From assembly GCA_004292595.1 (NCBI GenBank), contig RDXM01000083.1, forward strand, positions 79,215-143,214: a stretch of DNA of 64,000 nt. The letters are read 5' to 3'. Source of the stretch: Candidatus Kapaibacterium sp. (GTDB lineage Bacteria; Bacteroidota; Ignavibacteria; Kapaibacteriales; UBA4661). Shown one piece after another: positions 7,432-27,901 of the stretch (position 1 is its first letter; every line of letters starts with the position of its first letter). The notes under the pieces are model-generated. The model saw nothing but the letters and a program-made list of their open reading frames with translations, had not been told where the DNA came from and did no database searches. A program made the translations under genes and the position numbers.

Positions 7432-7532
7432 AGTGGTATGTATGATAGTGAATGTGGTGGTGGTGATCGTGGTGGTTATCCGAAAAAATTGCAGTCTTTC
7501 CGTGCGCAACTCCTAAACATTGAGTAAGTACT

Positions 7533-8361: not shown

Positions 8362-8413
8362 AAACGTAGTGGACAGTCAAATGAACGATTCAAATGGATA
8401 ATCAAATGGACAA

Positions 8414-8977
8414 TCAATGCTCGTAATGAATGGGAATAAGTGTCCAGCACGGTAAGGCTTTACCTTGTTTTTGTGCAGGAACAAAGGTTACGTTTTGCAA
8501 GGCAGCAATCGCCGACTGTTCCAATGCTTCGATTTCATCCACAGACAACTCCGCATCCCATTTCTTTTTCTTTGGGTCGAATGCTTTAATGCATTCGAGC
8601 GTGTGTTTGTCGTATTTACCTTTGTCGTCAATCAATACCATCATGGACACCCATGCTTCTTTTTTATTGGTTTTGATGCTTGTCGGATAGGCTATTTTTC
8701 CCATCAAGACTTTCGGGTCAATATGCGGCTCGGCTTCAATGCCCATGCTATTTCCGGGGCATGGCACTTTACTAGAAATAACATTTTGTGAAAAATCTCC
8801 CGCCGCTCCTTCTTGCACACATGGCGAAACCTTGGTGTGCGCCTTACTGTGCGCTTCGACGTGCAGCGCGTGAGCTTTCTCGGCAACTTGCGCGTGGGAC
8901 TTCTGCGCAAAAGCATTCATATTGTGGAGCAATAACCCCGTTACAAACGGGGCAACGATGCGGCATACAGACTTCAT
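8414..8977 (-). CDS. Secreted protein with a TonB C-terminal-like domain.
   Basis: Signal peptide. The C-terminal block KIAYPTSIK...AWVSMMVLIDDKGKYDK...AALQNVTFVPAQKQGKALPCWTLIPIHY fits the TonB_C topology. The match is weak. Confidence 0.35.
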   Translation of the reverse strand: MKSVCRIVAPFVTGLLLHNMNAFAQKSHAQVAEKAHALHVEAHSKAHTKVSPCVQEGAAGDFSQNVISSKVPCPGNSMGIEAEPHIDPKVLMGKIAYPTSIKTNKKEAWVSMMVLIDDKGKYDKHTLECIKAFDPKKKKWDAELSVDEIEALEQSAIAALQNVTFVPAQKQGKALPCWTLIPIHYEH

Positions 8978-9034
8978 ATACTCTCTCCTAAGAAGTATGA
9001 TTAAATAAAAGTGATAGTCTTGAATTCAACAGTG

Positions 9035-10150
9035 TCAGATTTTGATAAAGATTTTTTTCTTGTACAATACCCACGCAACCGCAAAAATAAGCAGGTTGTA
9101 GGTGATAGCAAAGGCAAGAGACGAATTATATGTGCTAGCAAAAAATGGATAAAAAGCGACGTTGTAGAGGATGTTTTTCATTGCCAATTCTTTCCCGTCG
9201 GGTTGGGTCACAGTCCAGAACAGCAACACTTTCATAAGCAAAATCGAAAGAACGTAGGTAGCAAGGGCGTTCATGCCATAAATGGTGAAAAACTTCGCCC
9301 AGCGTTGCCAGCCTTGAACGTCCATCATCCAGTAAAATGCACCAAGAAAAAGCAAGCCCCATCCTGCCATGAACACCGAATATGAGCTTGTCCAGAGGCT
9401 TTTGTTAATCGGCATTCCCCAATCCCAGACCCCGCCCACAAGCAAACACGCAAAACCAGCAAAGAGCATCCATGCAGCTTTTTCGTCGCGTGATTTTTCG
9501 GTTTTGAGCAAATATCCCGTCAGCGAGCCGAAAAGTGCCGTTGCAATAGCGGGAAGAGTGCTTAAAACTCCTTCGGGATCCCACGTTTTGGATTGCACCC
9601 ACATATGCCCTGTAAGCAGCATCGAATCTACATATGCAGCAAGATTTTTCCCAGGATCCATGAAGCCCGCACCAAGATTTGGTACAGGCACAAGGTACAT
9701 AATTGCATTGTAGAAAACAAGCAGTCCTGCCGTCCAAAGTGCTTGCGCTCGCACAGAAAAGTTCAGCATAATCAGTGCCGAGAGCGCGTAGCAAATGGCA
9801 ATACGCTGAAGAACACCAGGAATCCTAACAGTCGCAAAATTGAATTTTGGGATTAAATTAAGTAGGAATCCTAATAAAAAAATAATTGCAGCACGTTTTG
9901 CTACCTGCATGAACAAATCGGTCTTGCTGTCGCCACGCGCTACGCGGTGCGCCATTGAGTACGTCATGGAAACACCACCGATATAGATAAAGAATGGAAA
10001 AATCCAATCGGTAGGAGTCCAACCATTCCAATGCGCATGAAGAAGCTGCGGGTATGCTTGCGTCCACGAGCCAGGATTATTGACTAAAATCATGCCCGCA
10101 ACGGTGAATCCGCGAAAGGCATCTAAGGAAGCCAAACGTTCTGTTTTCAT
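9035..10150 (-). CDS. DUF1624/DUF5009 (HGSNAT-like) polytopic membrane acyltransferase, NagX-like.
   Basis: The N-terminus RLASLDAFRGFTVAGMILVNNPGSW is typical of the heparan-alpha-glucosaminide N-acetyltransferase/NagX family. There are about 11 TM segments, and the gene is a neighbour of nagB. Confidence 0.6.
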   Translation of the reverse strand: MKTERLASLDAFRGFTVAGMILVNNPGSWTQAYPQLLHAHWNGWTPTDWIFPFFIYIGGVSMTYSMAHRVARGDSKTDLFMQVAKRAAIIFLLGFLLNLIPKFNFATVRIPGVLQRIAICYALSALIMLNFSVRAQALWTAGLLVFYNAIMYLVPVPNLGAGFMDPGKNLAAYVDSMLLTGHMWVQSKTWDPEGVLSTLPAIATALFGSLTGYLLKTEKSRDEKAAWMLFAGFACLLVGGVWDWGMPINKSLWTSSYSVFMAGWGLLFLGAFYWMMDVQGWQRWAKFFTIYGMNALATYVLSILLMKVLLFWTVTQPDGKELAMKNILYNVAFYPFFASTYNSSLAFAITYNLLIFAVAWVLYKKKIFIKI

Positions 10151-10260
10151 AGTGTTTCCGTTATGTTATGAGATTGTCTCCGCGTTGATGAAAAATTGCC
10201 TTGCCATGAAGAACAGGCAAACGTGCCTGTTGTATCGAAGCCAGTATCCTCTACGATGCG

Positions 10261-13125: not shown

Positions 13126-13521
13126 TTAGGAAATCATACCCAGACCTTGCAACGTGCTAATGACTTTTTCTCGGTCAATCGGTTTAATCAAGTACGCCTC
13201 GCATTGATGCTTGAATGCTGCTTTTACATTGGCGAAGTCGCCCAGAGCGGTTGTCATAACAACCTTTGCTCCAGAAAGCGAGAAAACGCCATGTTGTTGC
13301 TCTAATTCACGAATATTTTTTAGCACATCCTGTCCCGTCATTTCGGGAACCATAATATCTAAGAAAACAACATCAAATTTATTTGGTGTTTGTAATGCAG
13401 CCTGAAATTTTTCTAGTGCCTCACGCCCATTTTCCGCCGTAACAACCTCACCGTAAGGCGCGAGAATTTCCGTCATGACACTGCGGCTTACGAACTCATC
13501 TTCCATTACGAGCATTTTCAT
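13126..13521 (-). CDS. Single-domain response regulator (CheY-like receiver).
   Basis: The pattern MKMLVMEDE...DVVFLDIMVPEMTG...IKP contains the D-D-K receiver residues. It is a paralog of the REC domain of the Hpt-REC protein at 16350..17657. Confidence 0.85.
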   Translation of the reverse strand: MKMLVMEDEFVSRSVMTEILAPYGEVVTAENGREALEKFQAALQTPNKFDVVFLDIMVPEMTGQDVLKNIRELEQQHGVFSLSGAKVVMTTALGDFANVKAAFKHQCEAYLIKPIDREKVISTLQGLGMIS

Positions 13522-13646
13522 ACCATATCCTTGAATTCTTGTAAAATTTTGATTTTTAAAGACTAACTAGTATTATTTTTATAGTTGCTGGATATTCCCA
13601 CTTTGATAGCAAACAACCAAAAGCTACGTGCGATTTCCCAGCTATA

Positions 13647-16148
13647 TCATGATAAAAACTGCTTCCACGCACCAAAACGAAAGAAAGAATCTAACTGAGA
13701 AATTTCTTCTTGCAGCATACCAAATAACGATGGTGCTTCATGCAGCATACCATTTTTACCAATTTTCTCCAACTGAGCGCATAAATCCAAACATCGTTCT
13801 GCACCAAAATTCCCGACCGCCGATTTGAGTTTGTGGGCGCAGGCGTGCAAATTCACTGCATTATTTTCTTGCACAGCCAATTCAATCGCCGCCAAATCCA
13901 CAGAGTAATTCTGTAAGAAATACGTGATGAGTTTTTCAACAATGTCTTTTTTGCCATTGACCGCCTGCAAAAGGCGAGAAATGTCTGCTGGAGGCGTACC
14001 AGTCCAGATGGGCTGCATCTGTTTTTCATTATCTATTGTACTTCTACCATTTGCATCAAATCCGTTCTGTGCTTGCAGAGTTGCTTCATCGGATGTAGCA
14101 TTTTTCGCTTGCAACAGCCGCCAGATTGCATCGTATAATTTAGCAAAATCCAAAGGCTTTGTGACAACATCATCCATTCCTGCGCGGCGGCACATATCGG
14201 CATCTTGCGGAGTTGCATGGGCAGTAATACCAATAATGGGCAAATGCCGACGTGTGATTTTTTCATGCGCCCGAATAGCGGCGGTTGCTGTTAAGCCATC
14301 CATTTCTGGCATTTGGACATCCATCAAAATAATATCAACATCGAAGTTGGTGCGTTCTAATTCATCCAATGCTTCTTGACCATTGCCCACCATCAGGAGT
14401 TCCCAGCCATTGATACCGAGCGTTTCGCGCAATACAGCTTGATTTATCGGACTATCCTCTGCAACCAAAACGCGGAGCTGTCTGCTACTCGGAATTGCCT
14501 TAGGTGCATCTCCCGATGATGTGCGGACGAATGTTGCATTTTGCGCTTCTTCCTGAAGCTGCGTAATCGGCAAACGTACGGTAAAACCGAAGGTGGAACC
14601 GCGCCCTGCCTCGCTTTTGCACCACACGCCACCGCCCATCATTTCTGCAAGTTGTTTCGCAATGGCAAGCCCTAAGCCAGTTCCGCCGTATTTTCGCGTA
14701 AAGGAAGGGTCGATTTGACTAAAACTTTTGAACAATTTGTCCATTTTATCCTGCGCAATACCAATCCCAGAGTCTTGCACGACGCACTCGACAAGTGCAG
14801 AATTATCTTTTGCTTCGAGCAATCGAGCCGAAACCCGCACCGTGCCTTTGTCGGTGAATTTCATTGCATTGGCAATAAAATTATTCAAAATTTGCTTAAA
14901 ACGAATAGCATCGCCAACTAAGCGAGCCGGAATCGCCTCATCAACATTCATTTGTAGCTCTAACCCTTTATTCTGAGCTTGTGTGCGGAAAATCTCACAC
15001 ACATCAGCAATAAGCGTTTTAATATCAATCGGAATATTTTCAAATTCTAGTTTCTGCGCTTCAATTTTGGAAATATCCAAAATATCATTGATAATGTACA
15101 GCAGCGAATCTGCCGAAACCCGCACCATACGCAAGTATTCATGTTGCTTTGTCGTTAGATTATCCCCACTGACAAGCAGACTACTCATGCCAATAATCCC
15201 ATTGAGCGGTGTGCGTAGTTCGTGGCTCATATTTGCCAAGAACGTGCTTTTTGCGTCATTGGCAGCTTCAGCAATTTCTTTTGCCCGCACAATTTCTACT
15301 GTCCGCTCCGCAACGCGACGTTCCAGTTCTTCATTAATGCTCTTCATTGTTTCTTCTGCAGTTTTGCGCTCGGTAATATCTATACTTGCAAATACCGCCG
15401 CTTCGCCGTGATGATATTTTCGCCCAATTACAAAAAAGGTTTTGAGTCCGAGTGGCGTTTGTGTCTCAAGCTCAAACTCTGTTGTATCATTAGGGCTTTC
15501 AAAAAATTGTTGAATCAATTCCTTAAATCTCATTGTTCCGAACTGCTGGATAAACCCAACTTCTTTCCCCGCATACTCACTTGCTGGAACCCCCATGACG
15601 CTTTCAATGTGGTTGTTCACGCCAAGATATTTCAAATCTCTGCTAATCCACGAAATAGTGCCAGGAACAGAATTCAACACCGCCTCAAGCTGCTCTTTTG
15701 TTTCTTGCACTACTTTTCGCTGCTCGGCAAGCTGCTTCTCTACCAGCAACGTATTGACGGCGCGTTCTATCGCAACATACAGTTTTTCTTGCTTTACAGG
15801 CTTAATGATGTATTGGTCAATACCAATTTCAATCGCATTTAAGAGAAAATCTGTGCGGTCATATGCAGTGGTCAGAATAATTGGAATGCGGCTATTGTGC
15901 ATACGAATACGACGCGACATCTCCATGCCGTCCATTATCGGCATCGCAACATCAGCAACAATCACATCTGGCTGATATTTTTCAAACATCGCTAAACCTT
16001 CCTGTCCATCTTGTGCCAAGACAACTTTTTCGACGCGCTTTTCGAGCAGCATCTTTGTTAAAAGACGAATAGCGGGGTCGTCCTCCACATACAGAATGAC
16101 GACGGGCAGTTTGTCGAGGGATTGCGTTTGCTGGGTTACTTGGCTCAT
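13647..16148 (-). CDS. Hybrid sensor histidine kinase: REC - PAS - HisKA - HATPase - REC - Hpt.
   Basis: The H-box [14 protein letters not shown], the G-boxes DSGIGI and [11 protein letters not shown], two receiver domains (VVILYVEDD and LRVLVAEDS) and a C-terminal Hpt ([18 protein letters not shown]). Confidence 0.9.
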
Positions 16149-16349
16149 AAAGAATCGGAATGATGAGTCGAAAGGTCGGAATGATGAGTCAGAATGACGT
16201 TAGAAAATATCGTCAAAAACCATGAAAAATATAAAAAGCATGATACGACAACACTTTACGGCAAGGAAGACGGTGCAACAACAAGTACGAACAGACATCG
16301 TAAATTAAACTCTCTTGTACGCTCCAAAGCCGAACAAAGCTCTGGCTGG

Positions 16350-17657
16350 CTATTCTTCCAATAAATGGAGTTTTCGTAATTGATTGAGAACTTTTGCCCG
16401 CGAAATTGGCTTCGTAATATACGCATCGCATTGCAAACGAAATGCCTTGAAGATTTGGTCCATGCTATCAAGTGCAGTAGTCATCACAATTTTTGAGCGT
16501 TGTTGAATCGGGAGGTGCTTTTTGTCCTCCATCTCTCGAATGCCCTTCAAGGCTTGTGTTCCGTCCATCATCGGCATCATAATATCCAAACAGATGAGGT
16601 CGTATCCACCGCCATCATTGAGCGTTTGCTCATATGCCAATAGGGCTTCGCGCCCGTCGGCAGCAAGGTCGCACACTCCAAAGGGTGATAAAATTTCGTG
16701 AATAACGGTGCGACTGACAAAATCATCCTCTGCAATCAGAATATTCATCTTTTTGATAGAACGAACCTCTTTTTGCGCAGGCGCAGCCTGCACGGAGGCG
16801 GTTTGCACGGGCGCGTTCGCGGAAGAACTTCCAGAAACACGACCTGCTGAGGCTTGCGAGGCATTTCCTTGAACAACTGGTGCTTCTGGACTTGAAGAAG
16901 ACGCGCTGCTCGCTTTGCTGAGTACTTTCTCGACATCCACAGGCTTCACTGGGTCGAAAATATGCATTTCTAATTCATCCAGTTCAAAGGTTGTGGCTAT
17001 CACAAGACGCATCACCGATTCGGCTTCTGTGCGTGGTAAGTTCTTGTATTCGGGATAGGTGGCGATATGGATTCCCACATCCCGAATATCGTCGTAGATA
17101 GGCAAGGTTTCATAGCTATCTTGCGAAAGATGCTGCGGATTGATAATTTTTTCTATCTGGTACACATTGAACTTTTCCCGCACCATTCCCGCCAGTAACC
17201 CGCGCTGGCGCTCACTCAGTGGAAATTGTAGGTCAATAAAATTCTTTCCCTTTGCACTCCTTCCGCCCCTGCGTTGCTGGGCTTCCTCGTGAATCTGCTC
17301 TAATTCACGTTGCAAGACAACAAGCTCCGCATGATGCTCTGTCGGAAGAAAAACATTGAACCGCATCGCATCTACCGCCATAAGGGATTTGTGAACAAGA
17401 AGTTGCGTCGGCTCGGCAAGTCCATTGCGCACTAAATCAAAGTTTGATTCTACTGCGTGAATAAGCTGCGACGAAGCATCGCGCTGGGCAAGCCCAAGTG
17501 TGCTTTTGAGGTTGTGTGCGATACGAAAGATTTGGTGAACACTCTCGGTCTTATCACTTTGTGTGTCCAGCATTTCCTCAAAGTTGAGAAGCAACTGCTC
17601 TAAACGTTCTATGAGGTCGATAATATCGCTCAGTTGGGATTCTTGGTCGTCCATCAT
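16350..17657 (-). CDS. Hpt domain - unknown linker (about 200 aa) - receiver domain protein.
   Basis: The N-terminal Hpt-like HQIFRIAHNLKSTLGLA matches FRxaHtlKG. The C-terminal REC is MNILIAEDDFVSRTV...ICLDIMMPMMDG. The middle region is Ala/Ser/Gln-rich. Confidence 0.7.
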   Translation of the reverse strand: MMDDQESQLSDIIDLIERLEQLLLNFEEMLDTQSDKTESVHQIFRIAHNLKSTLGLAQRDASSQLIHAVESNFDLVRNGLAEPTQLLVHKSLMAVDAMRFNVFLPTEHHAELVVLQRELEQIHEEAQQRRGGRSAKGKNFIDLQFPLSERQRGLLAGMVREKFNVYQIEKIINPQHLSQDSYETLPIYDDIRDVGIHIATYPEYKNLPRTEAESVMRLVIATTFELDELEMHIFDPVKPVDVEKVLSKASSASSSSPEAPVVQGNASQASAGRVSGSSSANAPVQTASVQAAPAQKEVRSIKKMNILIAEDDFVSRTVIHEILSPFGVCDLAADGREALLAYEQTLNDGGGYDLICLDIMMPMMDGTQALKGIREMEDKKHLPIQQRSKIVMTTALDSMDQIFKAFRLQCDAYITKPISRAKVLNQLRKLHLLEE

Positions 17658-17734
17658 GAGATTGCGTCCGAATGGTCTAAGATATGAAAAAATCGGGAAA
17701 ATGGTACATTCATTCCACTACTTGTTTGTATGAA

Positions 17735-18106
17735 CTATAACAAACCAACCGCTTTCAAGGCAGTTTTCATGCGGTCGCCAGAGAAAGGCTTTACTAAATA
17801 ATGGTTTGCACCAAGCTGTTGCAATTTTGCTTGCATTTCGGGGCTATCCAGCGTCGAAAGCATAACAACGGGGGTTTTTCCAGCAGTCGCGTGCTTGCGC
17901 ACTCGTTTCAAAAATTCCATTCCGTTCATGTTTGGCATTTCAATATCAGAAAAAATGACATCGAAGGTTTTGGAATCTAATACTTTTAAGCCTTGAATGC
18001 CATCCTCGGCTAAATCAACCTTAAAGCCAGACATTGCAAGAAAGGTGCGCGTTGCCGAGCGATGAATCTCGGTATCATCAACGACTAAAGCAGTCTTGAA
18101 AGCCAT
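17735..18106 (-). CDS. cheY: CheY-like single-domain response regulator.
   Basis: 123 aa with LVVDDTEIHR...DVIFSDIEMPNMNG...LVKPF. Confidence 0.85.
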   Translation of the reverse strand: MAFKTALVVDDTEIHRSATRTFLAMSGFKVDLAEDGIQGLKVLDSKTFDVIFSDIEMPNMNGMEFLKRVRKHATAGKTPVVMLSTLDSPEMQAKLQQLGANHYLVKPFSGDRMKTALKAVGLL

Positions 18107-18193
18107 CGGAATACTCCTTTAAAAAAGAAAGAAGAGTAAAAATGAAGAGTAATTGTTTGCAAAAGGAAGACCACTTCTGCGCATGAGAGAAGC

Positions 18194-19300
18194 CTACACA
18201 ATCCACGGTTTCTTTTCTGGCGACGAAATATGAACCGCTTTCGAGCCAACCTGAATAAAGACCGTTCTGCTGAACGATTGCCCCGTATCTTCAGAAGCGA
18301 TGGTGATGCCGAGTGCTTGAAGGAGTTGCTTGATAGCAGCAATATTTTTCTCGCCAATTTTGAAATAATTTCCAGCATCTGCGCCCGTTTGCGCACCACC
18401 AGCGAGCTTTGCCGTTAGCTGCGACATCGGCTTGCGGAAGCCCTTGGCTCGCATTTCGTTGATGAGAGCGGGAATGGCAGTATCGGCGAAATATCCAGGC
18501 AAACTCTTCGCTTTTTCGGGCGATGTTTGCGAGCTTGCCAAGGCAACGTGCGCCATACCAACGACATCCTGCGTCGGGCTAAACAAACACACCGCCACAC
18601 ACGAACCAAGCGCGAAGGTTTTCACAATTTTCCCATACTCATACGCCACGCCAAATTCTCCAACACCCAAAATCAGCTGCGGAATGCGCTCTTCGTAGTT
18701 TGGTATAGTTGCTTGCGAAGAAGTCTGCGTTGTACTTGGGCGCACAGGCGACGGAGCAAGACTTGATGAAGCAAGATTTGATGAGGCTTGCGGAGAAATT
18801 TGCGTGGGCAGTTTTGCGGGCAGTGCTGGTGGCGGCGAACCGCCTTGCGCACCAATCATACCGCGCTGACGCGCCGAGCGCACCTCGCTGCCGCTTACCC
18901 GATATGCTGCCCGAATTTTTACCACTAAACGCGCAAGTGTTTCTTGAAAACCTTGCGGATTCAAGGCAGAAGGTTTGGGAATAAAATCTACTGCACCCGC
19001 TTCTAATGCCTGTAAGGTAATACTTTTGTCGTTTTGCGCCCACGAACTGAGAACAATGATGGGCAGAGCATCACGCATCATCGCCGCTTTGATAAAATCC
19101 AAGCCGTTCATCACGGGCATTTCCATATCGGTTACGACGACATCCACAGCAAGTATTTGGAGCTTGTCCAAAGCATCCTGACCATGCACCGCCACGCCAA
19201 CAATTTCTAGCTCATGCTCTGGCGCACTCAAGGACTTCGTGAGCATATCTCGAACAAGTGGCGAATCATCCACTAATAAAACACGTATTTTTTCAGCCAT
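18194..19300 (-). CDS. cheD: Fusion of a CheB-type receiver domain to the CheD chemoreceptor glutamine deamidase.
   Basis: The N-terminal REC (MAEKIRVLLVDDSPLVRDML...) is about 60% identical to the REC of the adjacent CheB. The C-terminal half aligns with B. subtilis CheD (FALGSCVAVCLF..VGMAHVALASS; YFADTAIPALINEMRAKG; AKLAGGAQ; GITIASEDTGQSFSRTVFIQVGSKAVHIS). The start was chosen at the internal Met because the track start at 19429 overlaps cheB. Confidence 0.8.
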   Translation of the reverse strand: MAEKIRVLLVDDSPLVRDMLTKSLSAPEHELEIVGVAVHGQDALDKLQILAVDVVVTDMEMPVMNGLDFIKAAMMRDALPIIVLSSWAQNDKSITLQALEAGAVDFIPKPSALNPQGFQETLARLVVKIRAAYRVSGSEVRSARQRGMIGAQGGSPPPALPAKLPTQISPQASSNLASSSLAPSPVRPSTTQTSSQATIPNYEERIPQLILGVGEFGVAYEYGKIVKTFALGSCVAVCLFSPTQDVVGMAHVALASSQTSPEKAKSLPGYFADTAIPALINEMRAKGFRKPMSQLTAKLAGGAQTGADAGNYFKIGEKNIAAIKQLLQALGITIASEDTGQSFSRTVFIQVGSKAVHISSPEKKPWIV

Positions 19301-19361
19301 ATAAAACGATGGTCGTATATTCAAGTATTCTGGTTGTTCAGGCAGCACATTAGATAACAGA

Positions 19362-20501
19362 TTACACGCCAACTGCCTGCAAAATCGCCGCACCAATTTT
19401 GGGGAGCGGTAACACAGTTTGTACCGCACCGACTTCCTGCGCTACTTTGGGCATTCCAAAGACAACGGAGGTCGCTTCATCCTGCCCAATCGTTTTTGCA
19501 CCTGCATCGCGCATAGCTTTCAAGCCTTGTGCGCCGTCATTGCCCATACCAGTTAAAATCACACCACACGCATTCGCGCCAACGTATTCAGCAACGGACT
19601 TCATCATCACATCCACCGACGGACGATGCCCATTTACTTTATCTTCTTGCGACAACACAATTTCATATCGCCCACCAGAACGCACTACTTTCAAGTGCAT
19701 ATCGCCCGGAGCAACGAGAATACGCCCTGTTACAACGCGGTCGCCGTTGGCAGCTTCTTTTACCTCCATAGCACATTCTTCATTCAAGCGGTCAGCAAAG
19801 GTTTTCGTAAAACCTTGCGGCATATGCTGAACAACAACCACGCCAGGGGTCGTTGCGGGAAACTCACGCACCAAGCGGCGAATAGCCTCCGTACCGCCAG
19901 TGCTTGCACCAATGGCAATCACCTTGTCCGTGGATTCTGCCAGTGCTTTGGCTTTCAGTGGAGTAGTTGTTGCTCCGCCAAGACCAGCACCTGCGCCCGA
20001 AGAAGAAGCCGCTCCAGCACTTGCGCCCGTAATCGCTCCAGCACCTGCCCGCACGGAGTTGAACAGTTCTTCGCGTTTTGATTTCCAGTGCGATACATTT
20101 GCCGTCGAAGCAATTTTTACTTTTGTACGCAATTCCATCATCATCCCTTGCAAGCCCTGTGCCACATTGGAAGTCGGCTTGGCAACAAAATCCACCGCAC
20201 CTGCTTCCAATGCCTGCATGGTAATTTCCTTCCCGCGTTGCGTCAGCGAACTGACCATCACAACCGGAAGAGGAAATTGCGGCATTAAACGGCGCAAAAA
20301 CTCAACGCCATCCATACGTGGCATTTCGACATCCAGCGTGAGAACATCGGGACGCAATTCCACAATTTTATCCCGTGCAACAAACGGGTCTGGCGCAACG
20401 CCAACGACTTCGATATTTGGGTCTGCGCCCAAACCTTGCGAAAGAATATCCCGCACCAAAGCGGAATCATCAACGATAAGAACACGAATTTTTTTGCTCA
20501 T
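19362..20501 (-). CDS. cheB: Protein-glutamate methylesterase CheB (REC plus methylesterase).
   Basis: REC MSKKIRVLIVDDSALVRD and a methylesterase core AIGASTGGTEAI...VVVQHMPQGFT...GRILVAPGDMHL. Confidence 0.9.
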   Translation of the reverse strand: MSKKIRVLIVDDSALVRDILSQGLGADPNIEVVGVAPDPFVARDKIVELRPDVLTLDVEMPRMDGVEFLRRLMPQFPLPVVMVSSLTQRGKEITMQALEAGAVDFVAKPTSNVAQGLQGMMMELRTKVKIASTANVSHWKSKREELFNSVRAGAGAITGASAGAASSSGAGAGLGGATTTPLKAKALAESTDKVIAIGASTGGTEAIRRLVREFPATTPGVVVVQHMPQGFTKTFADRLNEECAMEVKEAANGDRVVTGRILVAPGDMHLKVVRSGGRYEIVLSQEDKVNGHRPSVDVMMKSVAEYVGANACGVILTGMGNDGAQGLKAMRDAGAKTIGQDEATSVVFGMPKVAQEVGAVQTVLPLPKIGAAILQAVGV

Positions 20502-20595
20502 TGCGCTTACAATCTAATAGAAGGTGAAGAATAGACAAGAATATACAAGATTATACGATAAATACAATAATGTGATGACCAAACGTTGAGCGTTT

Positions 20596-21453
20596 TTACG
20601 GCTTTTGGTACAATGCTGGACTAATATAACGAAAGGATGATGAATCACGTGAAATAGTCTCTGAATGCCCAATAAATAAGAAACCGCCCGGCTCAAGCGC
20701 GTTGTAGAAGCGTTCGACAAGTGCATCGCGGGTGGGTTTATCAAAATAAATCATGACATTTCGGCAAAAAATGGCGTGGAATGGGCGTTTGAAAGGAAAG
20801 TGCGTATTCATCAAATTAAATTTTCGATAGACAACATCTTTCTGCACCTGCGGTAAAATCTGGATTTCACCTGTGGGAAGCTGTTTGGTGTATTTACGTC
20901 TGTAATTATCGGGCAATAGCTCAATGCGTTCAAGCGGATAGACTCCTGCCTCGGCAACACCCAGCGCACGTTCGGAAATATCCGTCGCCAACACGCCTGC
21001 TTTCCACTTGGGATATTCTGCGCCAAAGTAATCCATAAGAAGCATTTGCAGCATATACGACTCTTCGCCCGAAGAGCAGCCAGCACACCAAATACGCAGG
21101 TCAAATTCACGCTTTGCGCTGAGTGTCGCCGAAATGCTCGGTAAAAACTGCCGCGTAAAAAACTCAAAGTGGTCTTTTTCGCGCCAGAAAAACGTATGAT
21201 TTGTGGTAATGTGATTGGCAAATTCAATCAGTGCTTCGGAATTGCCGCCAGCACGTGTCAAATACTCGTGATACTCATGGAAACTCGTCATTCCCATCTT
21301 CCGAAGCACTTTTTGTAAGCGCACCGTTACCATCGTCCGCTTTTCGGGAGGCAAGAAAATACCAAAACGGTCATACACAAGACGGCTCAAGCTGTCAAAT
21401 TCATCAACTGAAAGCTGAACCGAAACAATATCTTCAATCGCTGGAACCTGCAT
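20596..21453 (-). CDS. cheR: Chemotaxis protein methyltransferase CheR.
   Basis: The CheR N-terminal domain plus a SAM-dependent methyltransferase fold: TNHTFFWRE...RIWCAGCSSGEESYMLQM...FCRNVMIYFD. Confidence 0.9.
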   Translation of the reverse strand: MQVPAIEDIVSVQLSVDEFDSLSRLVYDRFGIFLPPEKRTMVTVRLQKVLRKMGMTSFHEYHEYLTRAGGNSEALIEFANHITTNHTFFWREKDHFEFFTRQFLPSISATLSAKREFDLRIWCAGCSSGEESYMLQMLLMDYFGAEYPKWKAGVLATDISERALGVAEAGVYPLERIELLPDNYRRKYTKQLPTGEIQILPQVQKDVVYRKFNLMNTHFPFKRPFHAIFCRNVMIYFDKPTRDALVERFYNALEPGGFLFIGHSETISRDSSSFRYISPALYQKP

Positions 21454-21473
21454 ATATCCTCATCATTTTGTGG

Positions 21474-23630
21474 TTAATAGCGACCAAACTCGCTGTCATC
21501 AAGGCGAATGGTGTCGTGTGCGGCGAGCATTTTTTGCGACGGTGCCGCAAGGTGCGCATCTTCTTTTTCTAACGATGCTTTTCTTGCATTGCCACTAGCA
21601 ACGCCGCTTTGCTGATACGCTTGCCCGCTATAATTCTTGTGCTTTGAAGGCATTTCATGTTTCAGTTTTGGGGAAGAACCATGATGCAATGACCCCGCTC
21701 CAAACGAGGAGTCTTGGCGCAACTGAAAGCGCGAGCTGACAACATTATTCAGTTCAACCGCTTGTTTAGAAAGCTCTTCGGCGGCGGCGGCGCACTCTTC
21801 GGCGGCGGCGGTGTTTTGCTGCGTTACGCGGTCAATCTGCGCAAGCCCAATATTAACTTGCGAAATACCTTGCGCTTGCTCATTCGAGGCAGAAGCAATT
21901 TCACCAACAATATCACGGACTTTCACACTAGCAAGCATGATTTCTTCGAGTGCCTGCGCGGTACGAGCAGCAATTTGTGTGCCTCTATCTGCGGTTTCGA
22001 CCGCAGATTCAATCAAATCTGCTGTTTCTTTCGCCGCTTTCGCGCTGCGTGCTGCCAAGCTCCGCACCTCTTCTGCGACCACCGCAAAACCCTTTCCATG
22101 CCGCCCTGCACGCGCCGCTTCCACAGCCGCATTCAGCGCAAGCAAATTCGTTTGGAAAGCAATTTCGTCAATGACTTTGATAATTTTTGAAATATTTCTG
22201 CTGGATTCGTTAATTGCCGACATTGCACTGCCAAGCTGCTCCATTTCTGCATTTCCACGTTGAGCAATGCTATTTGCATCCAAAGCAACAATATTTGCCT
22301 GATTTGCATTCTCAGCATTGATGCGGGTTTGCGAGGCAAGTTCGTGCATGGAGCCAGTAATTTCTTCCAATGCTGCTGCCTGCTCCGACGCACCATGCGA
22401 GAGCGACGTGCTTGCGTCGGCTACTTGCGACGCGCCACGCGTTACTTGCCCAATAATTTCCATTACATTTTGCAGAACATCAGCAATCGCGCTAATCGTG
22501 GAGTTGATATTTGACTTCAATGCCGCGTGGTCGCCTTTGTAATTGCCTTGCATTGGCTGGCGCAAATCACCCTCAGCCATATGCTTCAGCACCGATACCG
22601 CTTCTTGAATGGGATAAATCGTGGCATCCAACGTAGAATTTACGCCCGCAATAATGTCGCGGTACGCACCGTGAAAATGCTTTTCGTTGCCGCGTGTTTT
22701 CAGGTCGCCGCTTGTGGCAGCCTTTGTCAGCCCGTTGGTTTCTTCGGCAAGGTCTTGAATTGTCTGAACAATTTGCTTCTTCATCCTAGCGAGGTCGCCC
22801 ATTTCATCGAGGTTTGAAATGCTAAAGGAAATATTTTTCAAGTCGCCCACAGCAACCTTCGCATTCACTTCTTGGAGAAGTTTGATGGGCTTGACAAGGA
22901 ATCCGGCAATCAGGAAAATAGCAAGAATAATGCCCGCCGATGACAACCCAACAATCGAAGCAATCACCAAGGATTTTTCCGCCGTTGTTGCCTGTACCTC
23001 GTTCAAGCTCATGCTTACTTCAAATGCTCCATGCACTTCGCCTACTTTCCAGTTTTCCATTTTCGCGCCCGTTATGTCCTTGCCCTCAGAGTTTCCCCAC
23101 AATGCTGCTGATTCTGCTGGGTCGCCATGACATTGCATACATTCTTGCGTCAATTTTATCGGGCGGAAGTAGTGCAGTTGATTGGTGGCAGCATCTATTT
23201 CTTGATATTCGGTCAGCGTACCATCTTCAAGTTTTCTCAGAACAGCAAGCTCATTTGCATTTGGCTCATTGTCGGGATTGCGCGGTTGAATTTTCGGAAC
23301 TTTTATCGTAAAGCCTAGTTCCCGTGCCTTTTTCCGCGCTACTTCCATTGCCGAAAAAATCGGAATAGTATGCAAAATCTGCTCGGTGGTAAAGTTCGAT
23401 GAGCGCACATCTTTGAATACGCCTTGTTTTATCTGGTCGGCGGCATATTCGCGGGCGGACTCTGCCGCATAGACCAGTGTTCGCGCCTTATTCACGAGCG
23501 CATCAGTCGCGGCTTCGCGGTAAATTTTTGAAAAATACCAGTATGAAACAGCACCGCTCGCAAGAGAAATAATGACAATCGGCAAAATAAGTTTCCAGCG
23601 AATAGGCAAAGAAAGCCACCAGTTTTTCAT
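21474..23630 (-). CDS. Methyl-accepting chemotaxis protein with a periplasmic CxxCH (c-type heme) sensor domain (DUF3365/Tll0287-like).
   Basis: TM1, then a periplasmic domain ending [47 protein letters not shown], then TM2, HAMP repeats and the MA core [35 protein letters not shown]. The likely start is the internal Met [10 protein letters not shown]. Confidence 0.8.
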
Positions 23631-23794
23631 GGTATAGTCTCCAAAAATATAGTACAATCGTGTAATACAGTCGTATTGTACAATCAAACACGAAAAAAAT
23701 TTATTGATTTATTGGCACAAAAAGCTCTCTGTTCTTGCTTTCACACCCATTGCGTACCTTGCCCAGAATCTTTCTTGCTCTGAATTATTGCTCT

Positions 23795-23933
23795 CCTCTG
23801 TACACGACAAAACCTCTGAAAGGTGCATAAAATCAGGCTTCAGTGGCTTGAGGCTTCTTGCCTGTGTTTGTCGTCTGAAACCCGCACCAGAATGTCTGTG
23901 CCACTATGAAAGGAGTTTTGTCGTATACAGAGG
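23795..23933. repeat. MITE-like element of about 139 bp with 19 bp terminal inverted repeats (cctctgtacacgacaaaac / gttttgtcgtatacagagg). Copy A.
   Basis: The core taaaatcaggcttcagtggcttgaggcttcttgcctgtgtttgtcgtctgaaacccgca recurs, inverted, at about 31442..31566. The TIRs were read directly. Confidence 0.55.
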
Positions 23934-23954
23934 TTGCTCTCGTTATTGCTCTCA

Positions 23955-26477
23955 TTATTGCTCCAGCATTTCCAATACTTCCAGCGCACCCTCATTCAAC
24001 GATAAAACAGCATCAACATCAGTAATCAAGCCAATTTCACCGTTGCTGAGTATCATGCAGCCTGTTACGCCTTTCACGCTGCCCACATAGTCCGAAAGCC
24101 CCTTGACAACGATTTGCTGCTGCCCGATAATTTCATCCACAAACAAGCACGCACGTCGCTCGCGGGCTTCGACCACCACCAAAATTCCTTTCTGCAAATT
24201 TGTTGTTTGTGGTACAATGTCATAGACTTCATGCAAACGAATGACCGAAAACAAATCCTCTCTCACGCGCACCACTTCTTGCCCATCCATCGTAATCGTG
24301 ATAGCTTCGGGCTGCGGGCGAAACGATTCTCGAATAGAAAGTATCGGCAGGGCGTACACTGCTTGACCAACACGAATCAACATTCCTTCCATAATCGCTA
24401 AGGTCAAGGGAATACGCAGCGTGAAGCGTGTTCCCAAGCCCTCTTTGCTGTCCACCGTAATGCTGCCTTGCAACTTTTCGATATTCCGCTTCACAACGTC
24501 CATTCCCACGCCACGTCCCGAAATATCCGAGATTTTATCAGCAGTAGAAAAGCCCGGCTCGAAAATAATTTGAAAAACTTCGCGGTCGGTTACTTTGTCG
24601 GGAGCGGTTTTGATAATTCCTTTAGAAACAGCTTTATCCAAAATTTTCTGCCGATTCAATCCGCCACCGTCATCTTCAATAATAATCAAAATTTCATTTC
24701 CTTCGTACCGAGCTTGTAGTTTCACAACGCCTGTTTCGCTCTTTCCTGCTGCAATGCGCCGTTCACGGCTTTCTACGCCGTGGTCTATCGCATTGCGAAG
24801 AATGTGCATGAGCGGGTCGGAGATTTCTTCAATAACGTTTTTATCCATTTCCGTTTCCGCGCCAGAAATCACCAAGCTAATTTTCTTGTCGAAGCGCATG
24901 GACACGTCGCGCACGAGGCGTTTCATTTTATTGAACAAGCCTTCAACAGGTGTCATACGAATTGACATCGTTACTTCCTGCAATTCGCGGGTAATTTTAT
25001 TCAGCATTCCTGCTGCCCGCGTGAAGCTCTGCAATTCCAACGCAACCACTTCAGGATTGCTTGTTACCATTGTTTCAATGGTAATCAACTCGCCAACCAA
25101 ATCAAAAAGTTTATCCAATTTTTCGGTATCCACACGAATATCTTTGCGCTGGGCAAGCCCAGATGCCGCTTGCGGAGCGGCGGCTTGCGTGGCAGACGAT
25201 TGCATCGCCACTGGCGAAGGAGCTTGCTCAATGTTTGCCGACACTGCTTCTGGCAATACGTCCGAAGAAGCGAATTTTGGTATGTCGTTATGCAGCGCAG
25301 CAGCAGCCTGTATGCTGTGTGCAGGAATATCCTGTATATGTACGGATGCGGGTTGTGCAGAAGATACCTGCGCTGGCGAAGCCGAAAGGGTCGCAGTTTG
25401 GACATTCTTTGCTTTAGCAGCCTCCTTAGGAGCATCCTGCTGCTGCGAACTCACGCTCGGTGCATTGGTCATAAGTGCTTGCACGGCAGTTTTGATGATG
25501 TCGATATTGGTCAAAATCATCGAAATCAAGCCTGGATAAACCTCAATCGCCTTTGAGCGCACGGCATCAAGGATATTTTCCAAATCCATACTCATATCTT
25601 CAATTTCTGCAAAGCCCATAAAACCTGAGTTTCCCTTAATGCTATGCACTGCACCAAAGACATCGGCGACAATGCCCATATTGTGGGGGTCTTGCTCCAA
25701 AATCAAGCACCCATCTTCGACACGAGCAATCAGGTCGAGTGCTTCGGCAACATAGCGTGCAAGCATTTCACCTGTGGCGGCGGCGAGTCCTGCTCTATCG
25801 GGGAAGTCCGACTCAGAAGCTACTGGTGCAGCAACTGGAGGTGGTGGTGGTGTTTCTTCGCTGCTCAGAAGCGCGAGTTGGTCGTCATTAAAGAAAAAAT
25901 CGGTATCGGAGAAGATAGATTGAGATTGAAATTGCGTAGCAGCGTGTGTATGAGCTTCTGGATTGGCGGAAGAAGAAAACGACGGAGCAAACATTGGCTC
26001 TTCGCTCGGCACAAAAACTTCTTGAGATGGTGCGTGAGATGCTGGTGGCTTGGAAGCACTCTCAAGCCTTCCTCCGCCAGACTTCAGCAGTGTAATTGCT
26101 TGCTGCAAGCGTCCGATAAGATTTTTGACAGAGACTTCCTGTCCAGTATCTTTCAGCGAATCACTCACGGTATTGAGCAGGGTGCGAATAACGTCAAATG
26201 CCTCGTAAATAATACCGATGATGTCTTCATTGGGAATCCCAGTCATATTGCGCAGAATGTCCAGCATTGTTTCGGACTCATGCGTTACGGTATTGATGGT
26301 GTTAAAATTCAAAAAGCCCGACAGTCCCTTAATCGTGTGGAAAACGCGAAAAATGGAATGAATACTCTCTCGATTCGAGCCATCGGCAATATCCTGAATA
26401 CGACCTTCCTGCTCATCAAGTGAGTCTAATGATTCGGCAACAAATGCGCGGACTATCTCCAGCGTTTCACGATCCAT
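23955..26477 (-). CDS. cheA: Chemotaxis histidine kinase CheA with two tandem Hpt (P1) domains.
   Basis: P1 domains HSIFRVFHTIKGLSGFL and VFGAVHSIKGNSGFMGF, a dimerisation domain, an HATPase domain (IIIEDDGGGL...GRGVGMDVV) and a C-terminal CheW-like P5. Confidence 0.9.
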   Translation of the reverse strand: MDRETLEIVRAFVAESLDSLDEQEGRIQDIADGSNRESIHSIFRVFHTIKGLSGFLNFNTINTVTHESETMLDILRNMTGIPNEDIIGIIYEAFDVIRTLLNTVSDSLKDTGQEVSVKNLIGRLQQAITLLKSGGGRLESASKPPASHAPSQEVFVPSEEPMFAPSFSSSANPEAHTHAATQFQSQSIFSDTDFFFNDDQLALLSSEETPPPPPVAAPVASESDFPDRAGLAAATGEMLARYVAEALDLIARVEDGCLILEQDPHNMGIVADVFGAVHSIKGNSGFMGFAEIEDMSMDLENILDAVRSKAIEVYPGLISMILTNIDIIKTAVQALMTNAPSVSSQQQDAPKEAAKAKNVQTATLSASPAQVSSAQPASVHIQDIPAHSIQAAAALHNDIPKFASSDVLPEAVSANIEQAPSPVAMQSSATQAAAPQAASGLAQRKDIRVDTEKLDKLFDLVGELITIETMVTSNPEVVALELQSFTRAAGMLNKITRELQEVTMSIRMTPVEGLFNKMKRLVRDVSMRFDKKISLVISGAETEMDKNVIEEISDPLMHILRNAIDHGVESRERRIAAGKSETGVVKLQARYEGNEILIIIEDDGGGLNRQKILDKAVSKGIIKTAPDKVTDREVFQIIFEPGFSTADKISDISGRGVGMDVVKRNIEKLQGSITVDSKEGLGTRFTLRIPLTLAIMEGMLIRVGQAVYALPILSIRESFRPQPEAITITMDGQEVVRVREDLFSVIRLHEVYDIVPQTTNLQKGILVVVEARERRACLFVDEIIGQQQIVVKGLSDYVGSVKGVTGCMILSNGEIGLITDVDAVLSLNEGALEVLEMLEQ

Positions 26478-26731: not shown

Positions 26732-27901
26732 ATGCACACATTAGAATCGGTATCACACGTGACAAAAGCACACCACATCTACGTTCCCTCGCTTTTCCCC
26801 GCACTTTCTATTCCAACAAGAATGCGCTCGGAATCCCACTATTCGGGTAAAGGCATCTGTATCGCAATGATTGATTCAGGTTTCGTGCCGCATCCCGACC
26901 TCACAAAACCCGAAAATCGCATCCTTCGCTACTTCGATGCTGTCAAAAAAGAAGAGGCAGACCTTCCACCAACCAAGCCTGAAGTATATTCATGGCACGG
27001 CACCATGACCGCGTGCACCGCCGCTGGAAACGGCTTTCTCTCTCGAAAACTCTACTCTTCGCTTGCTTACAATGCCAACGTCGTGCTGGTGCGAACCATG
27101 GACGACAAAGGCTCTATCCCCACAAAGCGCATCGCAGAGGCGTTGGAGTGGTGCTTGCAGAACGCGAAAAAATATGGCATCAACATCATCAATTTGTCTG
27201 TCTATGCCGATGAAATGGACACATCGCTCGAACATCCCGTTACAAAGCTCGTTGAAGAGGCTTCGCGGCGTGGTATTGTCGTTGTTGCGGCATCGGGCAA
27301 TAATCCTCGTGTTCCTCTCTACCCACCTGCCTGTGCGCCTTCGGCGATTACCGTCGGTGGCTTGGACGATAAAAACAATCTTCTTGAGGACGACGGCTTG
27401 TATCATTCCAGTTTCGGACGCACGATTGAAGGCTTGACAAAACCAGAAGTTATCGCACCTGCAATCTGGCTTCCCGCACCAATTCTGCCCGGAACGCCCA
27501 CACACACCGAAGCCTCCGCGCTTTCGGCACTCGACAATATGCTCGACGATATGCTGATGACCACGCTGCCTTTGCTTTTGCCCAAAACTGGCTTACCGCT
27601 TGAACTCTTGCGCAATAGCAATGTGGATGAAATTCGTACAAAAATCAATGAGCGTTTGCAGGGAGAAAAAATTATTTCGCCTAACTACAAACACGTGGAC
27701 GGTACGTCATTTGCCGCGCCGATTGTCTGCTCGGTTATCGCGCAAATGCTCGAAGCAAACGACCGCCTCACGCCTGCAAAAATTAAGGAAATCCTCACCC
27801 AAACCGCACGAACACTGCCCAATTATCCATCCGAACCACAAGGACACGGCATGGTACAAGCAACAGCAGCAGTAGAAGCGGCAGCAGTGGCAACGTTGTA
27901 G
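26732..27901 (+). CDS. Subtilisin-like serine peptidase (S8 family).
   Basis: The catalytic triad context ICIAMIDSG (Asp), WHGT (His) and GTSFAAP (Ser). No obvious signal peptide from this start; the true start is uncertain. Confidence 0.8.
   Translation: MHTLESVSHVTKAHHIYVPSLFPALSIPTRMRSESHYSGKGICIAMIDSGFVPHPDLTKPENRILRYFDAVKKEEADLPPTKPEVYSWHGTMTACTAAGNGFLSRKLYSSLAYNANVVLVRTMDDKGSIPTKRIAEALEWCLQNAKKYGINIINLSVYADEMDTSLEHPVTKLVEEASRRGIVVVAASGNNPRVPLYPPACAPSAITVGGLDDKNNLLEDDGLYHSSFGRTIEGLTKPEVIAPAIWLPAPILPGTPTHTEASALSALDNMLDDMLMTTLPLLLPKTGLPLELLRNSNVDEIRTKINERLQGEKIISPNYKHVDGTSFAAPIVCSVIAQMLEANDRLTPAKIKEILTQTARTLPNYPSEPQGHGMVQATAAVEAAAVATL

Follow-up and report, generated by a model that had tools for sequence, protein, structure and literature searches.

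A Kapabacteria chemosensory cluster that has lost its cheW: a probable accessory F7-like pathway

A 64,000-nucleotide stretch of DNA (hereafter the window) from an NCBI metagenome-assembled genome (MAG) of an uncultured Candidatus Kapaibacterium sp. (locus tags EAZ92_*) carries a nine-gene chemosensory cluster, all on the minus strand (13126-26477), from which cheW has been lost. With moderate confidence we assign the cluster to an accessory F7-like pathway, distinct from the Che system that this lineage encodes with its flagellar genes. It probably runs as a second, redox-sensing pathway beside the ordinary flagellar one.

The genes follow the order cheA, MCP, cheR, cheB, REC-CheD, cheY, Hpt-REC, hybrid kinase and response regulator (RR). 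The first-pass annotation had described nine open reading frames (ORFs) on one strand and their domains, and Pfam bore this out. In this region the proteins of the MAG are numbered TAE30937-TAE30964. The features, with a second receptor gene of the window, are as follows:

23955-26477, minus strand: cheA, 840 aa (Pfam; NCBI TAE30952.1, annotated 'chemotaxis protein CheA')
26088-26477, minus strand: P1a of CheA, phospho-His H47
25443-25802, minus strand: P1b of CheA, phospho-His H278
24402-25142, minus strand: P3-P4 of CheA (Pfam)
23988-24401, minus strand: P5/CheW-like domain of CheA (Pfam)
23631-23954, minus strand: cheA-MCP intergenic region, the cheW slot of ten-gene relatives
21474-23630, minus strand: transmembrane MCP, 718 aa (Pfam; the ORF extends to 23687, probable start 23630)
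23127-23141, minus strand: CMQCH haem-c motif of the cluster MCP, residues 164-168
21477-21491, minus strand: C-terminal EFGRY pentapeptide of the cluster MCP, on a variable linker
20596-21453, minus strand: cheR methyltransferase, 285 aa (Pfam CheR_N and CheR)
19362-20501, minus strand: cheB, REC and methylesterase, 379 aa (Pfam)
18194-19300, minus strand: REC-CheD fusion, 368 aa (Pfam)
17735-18106, minus strand: cheY, 123-aa single-domain receiver (Pfam)
16350-17657, minus strand: P1-P2like-REC ("Hpt-REC") protein, 435 aa (Pfam Hpt at 25 bits, and REC)
17259-17657, minus strand: Hpt/P1 of this protein, H48
16902-17213, minus strand: its CheA-P2-like alpha/beta domain (AlphaFold/Foldseek)
16368-16748, minus strand: its REC (Pfam), preceded by a disordered linker
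13647-16148, minus strand: soluble hybrid histidine kinase, 833 aa, with REC1, PAS-like, HisKA-HATPase, REC2 and Hpt (Pfam)
13126-13521, minus strand: terminal single-domain RR, 131 aa (Pfam)
5563-7509, minus strand: second 36-heptad (36H) MCP, with a 4HB sensor (Pfam; probable start 7431)

MCP, CheY, CheR and CheB all exceeded the Pfam cut-offs, so this part of the core Che set is present, and CheA contains the core domains P1, P3, P4 and P5. CheZ, CheC and CheX were found neither in the cluster nor in the 64-kb window, and no RR with an effector domain was found in the cluster. A promoter/terminator scan did no better than shuffles, and Rfam gave no match within the window.

The cluster MCP combines a periplasmic Tll0287-like domain with HAMP, HAMP_2 and MCPsignal domains. 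The Tll0287-like domain and the CMQCH motif, a CxxCH conserved in orthologs, support its earlier designation as a heme-MCP. Its signalling domain is of the 36H class, aligning to E. coli Tsr residues 229-519 with a single 1-residue gap near the C-terminus. The window and eight relative loci share the conserved tail ...LDD[SND][ED]FG[RK]Y-COOH in their cluster MCPs (...EFSRY in locus L060), and such pentapeptide tails follow variable low-complexity linkers whatever sensor domain precedes. As read from its sequence, the tail fits an NWETF-type pentapeptide (aromatic-x-x-aromatic at the extreme C-terminus, on a flexible linker). The 4HB MCP likewise aligns to the Tsr cytoplasmic domain with a single 1-residue gap, here in the HAMP region; its hairpin tip and that of the cluster MCP are identical, a C-terminal pentapeptide is lacking, and this receptor probably signals through the same CheA. 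The window also encodes a 40H MCP, which implies a further chemosensory pathway.

The adaptation set in the cluster is complete. CheB has the active-site motif GASTGG, and its receiver is 48% identical to that of the REC-CheD fusion, a CheB-type receiver joined by a low-complexity linker to the CheD deamidase domain. The latter retains the motifs GSCVAV (with its Cys) and MAH (with its His). The REC-CheD ORF spans 18194-19429, with the true start at M44 (19300) according to the gene call in an identical Logan contig. About 40 close clusters with a REC-CheD fusion, and many more distant ones, are present in public data. CheY has the canonical D/T/Y/K residues, and in the PDB it best matches V. 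cholerae CheY4 (4H60/4HNR; 71 bits, versus 63 bits for E. coli CheY; PMC3774744). CheY4 belongs to the F7 cluster III, which has cheD and lacks cheZ (PMC3774744). The cluster CheY may nonetheless bind FliM.

Both P1 domains that the first-pass annotation had recognized in CheA keep their phospho-His motif. A disordered linker separates them, a second one without P2 follows P1b, and Pfam found no REC on the protein. In a phmmer comparison with the PDB, E. coli CheA (361 bits) scored above T. maritima CheA (300 bits). [quoted passage not shown]

The only P2-like domain of the pathway lies in the P1-P2like-REC protein. AlphaFold modeled this protein with a pLDDT of 82.7 overall and 92.0 for the middle domain, which is predicted to form a beta-alpha-beta-beta-alpha-beta open sandwich following P1, as CheA P2 does. 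When the middle domain was compared by Foldseek with 350,542 PDB chains, the top match was the P2 of T. maritima CheA (1u0s_A), with a borderline E of 0.011, a probability of 1.0 and a TM of 0.63 over all 86 target residues. Pfam P2 and CheY-binding models gave no match to this domain at E <= 5, and a family profile matched no PDB sequence; P2 is poorly conserved (PMC10782961, section 12). In the predicted structure, the middle domain is P2-like in fold. A liberated P1 is functional (PMC10782961, section 10).

The hybrid kinase carries the H-box SHELRTP and the Hpt motif AHKLKS. All of its REC-PAS-HisKA-HATPase-REC-Hpt architecture, as first described, was recovered except for the PAS, which here scored 18.8 bits against a PAS_4 cut-off of 23.1; an ortholog carries PAS at the level of a strong match. 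The terminal RR is a paralog of the REC in P1-P2like-REC (43% identity) and in relatives always comes after the hybrid kinase. Together, the two are conserved partners of this CheA family at many loci of Kapabacteria, Ignavibacteria and Spirochaetota.

An F7-like accessory system is suggested by the 36H class of the receptor, by the presence of CheD and by the top-scoring PDB matches, namely E. coli CheA and V. cholerae CheY4; the term 'F7-like' is set from receptor class and best matches. The F7 class is tied to 36H receptors (PMC7184735, PMC9321776), and both the cluster MCP and the 4HB MCP are of this kind. Relative to the ancestral F7 set cheY-cheA-cheW-MCP-cheR-cheD-cheB, the cluster has the same kinds of genes, including cheD and an in-cluster MCP, and departs from it in the absence of cheW, a swapped cheB-cheD order and extra genes. 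Ancestral (stage 1-2) F7 systems are represented by P. aeruginosa Che2 (cheY2-cheA2-cheW2-aer2/mcpB-cheR2-cheD-cheB2) and V. cholerae cluster III, and the ancestral gammaproteobacterial F7 does not drive the motor (PMC7184735). Like these, the present cluster places a dedicated 36H receptor gene between the kinase and the adaptation genes, is predicted to sense through haem, has CheD without CheZ, has a receptor with a C-terminal aromatic pentapeptide (PMC7184735, PMC3774744), probably co-exists with another che system, and encodes a CheY nearest to CheY4. However, its sensor is a periplasmic c-type haem Tll0287-like domain, whereas that of ancestral F7 is a cytoplasmic PAS with haem b. It also differs in lacking cheW, in a CheD fused to a receiver, in a CheA with two P1 domains and no P2, in the extra P1-P2like-REC and hybrid kinase/RR pair, in having no STAS or phosphatase genes, and in phylum.

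Two other systems resemble parts of the cluster. For R. centenum Che3 (class ACF), experiments defined a cascade in which CheA3 phosphorylates REC1 of CheS3, and only CheS3 phosphorylates CheY3 (PMC3868531). That Che cluster likewise holds a single-domain RR and a hybrid kinase that begins with a receiver. In contrast to Che3, our CheA does not end in a REC, the hybrid kinase also has REC2-Hpt and so a full phosphorelay, there is a separate CheY as well, and receptor class and phylum differ. ACF CheAs usually carry a C-terminal receiver; ours has none, yet it has two Hpt domains and a CheS3/CheY3-like branch. Among the rows listed in the supplement table of PMC10782961, no Ignavibacteria CheA is classed as ACF. 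The bipartite CheA systems (R. sphaeroides CheA3/CheA4 and separate Hpt genes) likewise divide the work of CheA between two products of one operon, and there a protein with P1 but no kinase domain receives its phosphoryl group in trans (PMC10782961, section 10). Here, however, CheA itself is complete (P1-P3-P4-P5), and the second protein carries P1 together with the sole P2-like domain and ends in a receiver, whereas the bipartite partner ends in P5.

Two scans confirmed the earlier report that the window has no cheW. A Pfam scan of every non-overlapping ORF of 90 aa or more gave CheA P5 as the sole CheW domain, and a CheW profile run on every six-frame ORF of at least 50 aa in the 64 kb returned CheA P5 only. 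Neither a stand-alone CheW nor a CheV, which the core Che set includes, was found within the window. This absence had been read as a hallmark of an alternative system, and comparison with relatives spoke against that view. Ten-gene clusters on Kapabacteria and Ignavibacteria metagenome contigs (L082-L084, L086, L088/L089) have the same other genes in the same order (S8 peptidase, cheA-cheW-MCP-cheR-cheB-REC.CheD-cheY-Hpt..REC-hybrid HK-RR), and share with the window the divergent S8 peptidase, the MCP tip and C-terminal tail, REC-CheD, the hybrid kinase and the RR. A cheW occupies the slot between cheA and MCP in L082, L083, L084, L086, L088, L089 and L006; nine-gene orthologs without cheW are L001, L002, L090 and L092. 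L001 belongs to MAG JAAFIV01 and L002 to MAG JALONG01, while JANYIG01 and JBRCSM01 represent a cheW-bearing sister. In a neighbor-joining tree the topology was (((window,L001),L002),L006), with L006 bearing cheW and bootstrap values of 99-100. The cheW-less form is therefore a derived clade, nested inside cheW-bearing relatives that include its sister and more distant orthologous clusters, and cheW was lost secondarily.

At least five lineages have stably retained this loss. When nine CheW queries were run by tblastn against the gaps of the window, L001 and L002, no relic of cheW was found below E = 3, and the ~10 kb flanking the cluster to either side in L001, L002, L090 and L092 contained no cheW. 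A shortened Hpt..REC protein co-occurs with the loss: its homologs in the ten-gene clusters are longer (551-697 aa), a form absent from the window clade, and the long homologs P0016 and P0017 (the latter from L084) have a second Hpt. In CheA P5, 31/32 positions that are near-invariant in cheW-bearing relatives have not changed, P5 has diverged relative to P4 at a normal ratio, and the cheW-less clade shows no clade-specific substitutions or change of rate. The receptor tip is identical in the two groups. With no relaxed constraint in P5 or the receptor tip, a CheW acting in trans is favored. A profile of nine CheWs from Kapabacteria and Ignavibacteria was searched against 5.8 billion proteins, and none from this MAG was among the best 120 of 7,999 matches.

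These observations bear on two further accounts of the missing gene. One is that the array is truly CheW-independent, with CheA P5 alone (or P5-P5 contacts) coupling the kinase to the 36H receptors. The disappearance of cheW from several diverged lineages with the nine other genes intact, its absence from the 64 kb and from the relatives' flanks, and the coincident shortening of the Hpt..REC protein would all agree with this account. We nonetheless consider it improbable, because P5 has neither clade-specific substitutions nor an altered rate, every chemosensory pathway is regarded as having a CheW (PMC12691637), and the genome encodes one or more further receptor classes, which implies a second che system able to lend a CheW. 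Its fullest form, in which a whole Kapabacteria clade would run a CheW-free array with P5 as sole coupling module while the detached P1-P2-REC took over CheY docking and signal termination, is a long shot; if true, it would represent a natural minimal or rewired core signalling unit. The other account is that the system stopped working once cheW was deleted and that its other genes are heading for loss. An essential core gene is indeed missing, and non-motile Chlorobi are known to carry relic che genes (PMC3362086). Yet the window, L001, L002 and L092 keep every one of the nine ORFs intact, at 49-81% protein identity (as does L090, save for a cheA truncated where the contig begins), the catalytic and phospho-acceptor motifs are retained, and the receptor tip and P5 are as conserved as in cheW-bearing relatives. 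On these grounds pseudogenisation was rejected, and a decaying pathway is very improbable.

A more serious contender, if still an unlikely one, is an ordinary flagellar chemotaxis operon, with CheA to CheY to FliM as main output, cheW elsewhere, and the hybrid kinase, RR and P1-P2like-REC as accessory modulators or phosphate sinks. The full adaptation set and canonical CheY would suit such an operon, the E. coli system uses receptors of this class, Kapabacteria have been reported as flagellated (PMC6338057, PMC7509429), and relatives of this CheA are found in flagellated Spirochaetota and Planctomycetota. However, the flagellar CheA of Ignavibacteria is a different protein: the CheAs of I. album and M. 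roseus appear in the PMC10782961 supplement as 594-600 aa, single-Hpt and F1, and the I. album che genes sit inside a flagellar gene cluster (PMC3362086). The present cluster would therefore be a separate system. Moreover, neither the window nor any of the cluster flanks yielded a flagellar gene, CheY is nearest to CheY4, which does not bind FliM, and the link to the hybrid kinase/RR pair is invariant.

For the accessory pathway that we favor, we propose the following course. The periplasmic haem-c (Tll0287-like) MCP, probably together with the 4HB 36H MCP, would control CheA. Having two P1 domains and no P2, CheA would be complemented by P1-P2like-REC, which would supply a docking P2 and a third P1, the latter probably phosphorylated in trans by CheA P4. 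As no CheZ, CheC or CheX is encoded nearby, this protein may act as a shuttle or phosphate sink. In adaptation, CheR would be tethered to the EFGRY tail and would act alongside CheB and a CheD deamidase under phospho-control of its CheB-type receiver. CheA would phosphorylate CheY and also REC1 of the hybrid kinase, whose relay would run from HisKA to REC2 to Hpt to the terminal RR. Through this branch the pathway would gain a second output that is probably not the motor, on the pattern of R. centenum CheA3/CheS3/CheY3. The deletion of cheW would have occurred in the clade ancestor, and a CheW from another place in the genome most likely supplies the coupling now.

Three of these parts, the receiver-controlled CheD deamidase, the kinase-less P1-P2-REC and the periplasmic c-haem MCP, found no description in the literature searched. 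With the CheS3-like branch, they would offer a compact model of how Che systems branch to non-motor outputs outside the Proteobacteria. A clade with an intact, conserved cluster minus its own cheW is also a natural experiment on the specificity of CheA-CheW-receptor coupling, and raises the question of whether pathways can share one coupling protein.

Membership in the Tfp (Pil-Chp) or Frz systems was considered and rejected: CheA has no REC, the receptor is transmembrane and 36H, and no pil or gld genes were found in the window or the cluster flanks. The first-pass annotation had suggested an alternative output. That suggestion stands insofar as this is not a plain flagellar che operon and its hybrid kinase/RR partners are conserved; it fails in taking cheW absence as a hallmark, in naming Frz, Wsp and Chp as closest analogues (CheA has no REC, and there are neither effector-domain RRs nor pil genes) and in proposing gliding. 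The gliding idea had been drawn only from T9SS tails, and Kapabacteria MAGs are reported with flagella and CheABWRYZ (PMC6338057, PMC7509429). One of these T9SS tails scored below the cut-off; the other, at 52827-53717, is solid (38 bits).

Nine ORFs follow one another without interruption on the minus strand at 13126-26477, and their Pfam domains bear out the first-pass annotation of a nine-gene, same-strand chemosensory cluster:

23955-26477, minus strand: cheA, 840 aa; two P1 domains (P1a, P1b), P3-P4 and a CheW-like P5
21474-23687, minus strand: MCP; Tll0287-like, HAMP, HAMP_2, MCPsignal
20596-21453, minus strand: cheR; CheR_N, CheR
19362-20501, minus strand: cheB; REC, methylesterase
18194-19429, minus strand: REC-CheD; REC, CheD
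17735-18106, minus strand: cheY; REC
16350-17657, minus strand: Hpt...REC protein; Hpt, REC
13647-16148, minus strand: hybrid kinase; REC, HisKA, HATPase, REC, Hpt
13126-13521, minus strand: response regulator (RR); REC

Of the architecture previously proposed for the hybrid kinase (REC-PAS-HisKA-HATPase-REC-Hpt), only the PAS domain fell below threshold here. Motif checks found the phospho-acceptors of CheA (H47 and H278, one per P1 domain) and of the 435-aa Hpt...REC protein (H48), the H-box and Hpt histidines of the hybrid kinase, GASTGG in CheB, and the conserved Cys-containing and His-containing motifs of CheD; every receiver of the cluster has its Asp. NCBI entries TAE30937-TAE30964 (locus tags EAZ92_*) are identical to the window's proteins.

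The reported absence of cheW from the window was confirmed in two ways. When all 51 non-overlapping ORFs of 90 aa or longer were scanned with Pfam, CheA alone gave a CheW family hit. A CheW profile, drawn from CheA P5, the CheWs of E. coli and T. maritima and first-round matches, was run against all ORFs of 50 aa or longer in the six frames and matched only CheA P5. Among GTDB species representatives, the closest CheA loci are L001 (78%), from a MAG labelled ‘Ignavibacteria bacterium’, and L002 (61%), from one of Candidatus Kapaibacterium; both have the nine genes in the same order without cheW, as do metagenome contigs L090 and L092. More distant orthologous contigs (L082/L083, L084, L086 and L088/L089) carry the window’s cluster with a single addition, a cheW that sits precisely between cheA and the MCP gene; cheA-cheW is also present in L006, the closest outgroup. 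A neighbor-joining tree of the P3-P5 core gave (((window,L001),L002),L006) with bootstraps of 99-100, the cheW-less clade being nested among cheW-bearing clusters. This nesting, with the cheW-bearing relatives, indicates an ancestral ten-gene cluster that included cheW. Judged from gene order and phylogeny, the absence is derived: the window’s clade deleted cheW from a conserved cluster.

No cheW relic was found in the window’s 324-nt cheA-MCP gap. The corresponding gap of L001 (L001:12506-13020) is 515 nt and contains a long imperfect palindrome (…CCCTCTCCCAGAGGGAGAGGGC… / …CTCCCTCTGGGAGAAGG…), not present in the window, that looks like a REP/MITE-like insertion where cheW formerly sat. The Hpt...REC protein is 405-435 aa in the cheW-less clade versus 551-697 aa in cheW-bearing clusters, and its long homologs P0016 and P0017 (the latter from L084) have a second Hpt. 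Loci from Planctomycetaceae and ‘Fibrobacter’ MAGs (L030, L039, L050) belong to another branch of this CheA family. They have the order cheA-cheR-cheB-cheD-cheY with no cheW in the examined flanks; cheW has therefore been lost from the cluster more than once. Divergent from cheA lies a subtilase (S8) gene (26732-27901, plus strand). An S8 peptidase gene is upstream of the cluster in cheW-bearing L082, L084 and L088, the other cheW-bearing contigs ending short of this position, and in cheW-less L092; co-regulation with the cluster is possible.

Loss of cheW might signal a decaying pathway, but the remaining components argue against this. All nine genes are intact in diverged cheW-less members, save the L090 cheA, which is truncated where the contig begins. 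The cheW-less clade retains 31 of the 32 P5 positions that are near-invariant across 14 cheW-bearing relatives, the remaining one having gone from I to V; the ratio of P5 to P4 divergence matches that of cheW-bearing lineages, and the hairpin tip of the cluster MCP is identical in both groups. Neither the conserved columns, the P5/P4 divergence nor the receptor tip hinted at P5 remodelling for CheW-free coupling. The pattern is compatible with a CheW supplied from elsewhere.

The cluster MCP had been called a heme-MCP, a reasonable reading because CMQCH lies within its periplasmic Tll0287-like domain. It and the 4HB MCP at 5563-7509 each aligned with E. coli Tsr from HAMP to C-terminus with a single 1-residue gap, so both are 36H receptors; their hairpin tips are identical. 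Irrespective of sensor domain, cluster MCPs share the ending ...LDD[SND][ED]FG[RK]Y (EFSRY in one locus, L060). This pentapeptide, of the aromatic-x-x-aromatic type, is carried at the C-terminus by a variable linker and is reminiscent of the NWETF/GWEEF tether in F7 receptors. A further MCP (38597-40993, minus strand) combines an N-terminal TPR-repeat region with a 40H-class signalling domain, aligning nearly gap-free (one 1-residue gap) with P. putida PcaY, a 40H receptor. Its tip is unlike that of the two 36H MCPs, and from class and tip together we expect at least one more che system in the genome besides the cluster.

The receptors that pair with F7 systems are of class 36H (PMC7184735, PMC9321776). 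By score, the CheA core is closer to the E. coli protein (361 bits) than to that of T. maritima (300 bits), and the best match of CheY was 4H60/4HNR, V. cholerae CheY4 of cluster III, which has cheD, lacks cheZ and encodes a CheY unable to bind FliM (PMC3774744). The CheAs listed for I. album and M. roseus, both Ignavibacteria, are 594-600 aa, single-Hpt and F1-class (PMC10782961); I. album has che genes and cheZ within its flagellar gene cluster (PMC3362086), and flagellar genes with CheABWRYZ are reported from Kapabacteria MAGs (PMC6338057, PMC7509429). Because of the 36H class, the CheA and CheY matches, the tail and the distinct F1 CheA of I. album and M. roseus, we read the cluster as a second, F7-like system beside a flagellar one, a class taken from receptors and best matches. 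The arrangement parallels the F6 and ancestral F7 systems of gammaproteobacteria (PMC7184735). [quoted passage not shown]

The 435-aa Hpt...REC protein has ~20 full-length homologs among 5.8 billion proteins. In the AlphaFold model (whole-chain pLDDT 82.7), residues 1-133 form a helical bundle and residues 149-252 a compact alpha/beta domain, which a disordered linker joins to the receiver. Modelled alone (pLDDT 92), the middle domain has the order beta-alpha-beta-beta-alpha-beta, and its best match among 350,542 PDB chains was 1u0s_A, T. maritima CheA P2 in complex with CheY (E 0.011, probability 1.0, TM 0.63, whole target covered). Sequence comparison gave no support for P2 identity; P2 is poorly conserved (PMC10782961). 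CheA has only low-complexity linkers at the expected P2 position, so the pathway’s sole P2-like domain resides on a separate, kinase-less P1-P2-REC protein. In a Treponemataceae MAG (L014), a gene upstream of cheA and on the other strand encodes a protein with matches to each of the three parts; the module is thus not confined to Kapabacteria.

REC-CheD starts at M44 in an identical Logan contig, giving 368 aa; the overlap of its ORF with cheB arises solely from an upstream GTG. Its receiver is 48% identical to that of CheB. The fusion recurs in ~40 close clusters and, in a shorter form (~310 aa), in Nitrospinota and Thermodesulfobacteriota; in more distant relatives (e.g., L018 and spirochaete loci) cheD is unfused and adjoins cheB. 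A limited literature search found no description of the fusion.

A hybrid kinase with at least one receiver and a 130-aa RR accompany this CheA family in Kapabacteria/Ignavibacteria (L003, L005, L007, L018) and in many Spirochaetota loci. At 43% identity, the terminal RR and the P1-P2-REC receiver may share a phosphodonor. In R. centenum Che3, CheA3 phosphorylates REC1 of CheS3, and CheY3 is phosphorylated by CheS3 only; both systems have a REC1 on a second kinase followed by a single-domain RR (PMC3868531). By this good experimental precedent an additional output branch is plausible, and it would probably be non-motor. The first-pass proposal of an alternative output thus survives in half: the branch remains plausible, but absent cheW is not its signature. 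The missing gene does not identify a Frz/Wsp/Chp-type system either; it was deleted secondarily from a conserved cluster. The suggested link to gliding found no support.

Beside the cluster, 7579-12783 (minus strand) encodes a NamZ-beta-lactamase fusion, a 371-aa acyltransferase-like protein, a TonB_C protein and a CBM9 protein, which suggests putative peptidoglycan or MurNAc recycling next to a sensory cluster. In L090, L091 and L092, most of this block likewise lies downstream of the cluster: L090 and L092 share the fusion and the 371-aa protein with the window, the CBM9 protein is missing from L092, and of these three loci L091 alone has TonB_C. The ORF at 44747-46780 (plus strand, 677 aa) matched no Pfam family; it overlaps the stop of the phosphate acetyltransferase gene pta (43764-44750) by 4 nt and is, from this overlap, probably co-transcribed with it. 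Three Uma2-family genes (PF05685, putative restriction endonuclease) lie within 12 kb (42927-43727, plus; 47985-48785 and 53782-54363, minus). The 1234-aa 2-oxoglutarate dehydrogenase E1 at 54467-58171 (minus strand) has an internal 2-oxoacid_dh acyltransferase (E2-like) domain; fusions of this OdhA/Kgd type are best known from Actinobacteria, and this one is in a Kapabacteria genome. Two neighbouring ~296-aa proteins (51864-53717, minus strand) sit beside a GH20 hexosaminidase; the T9SS C-terminal sorting domain is solid in one (38 bits) and scores 20.7 bits, under the Pfam cut-off, in the other.
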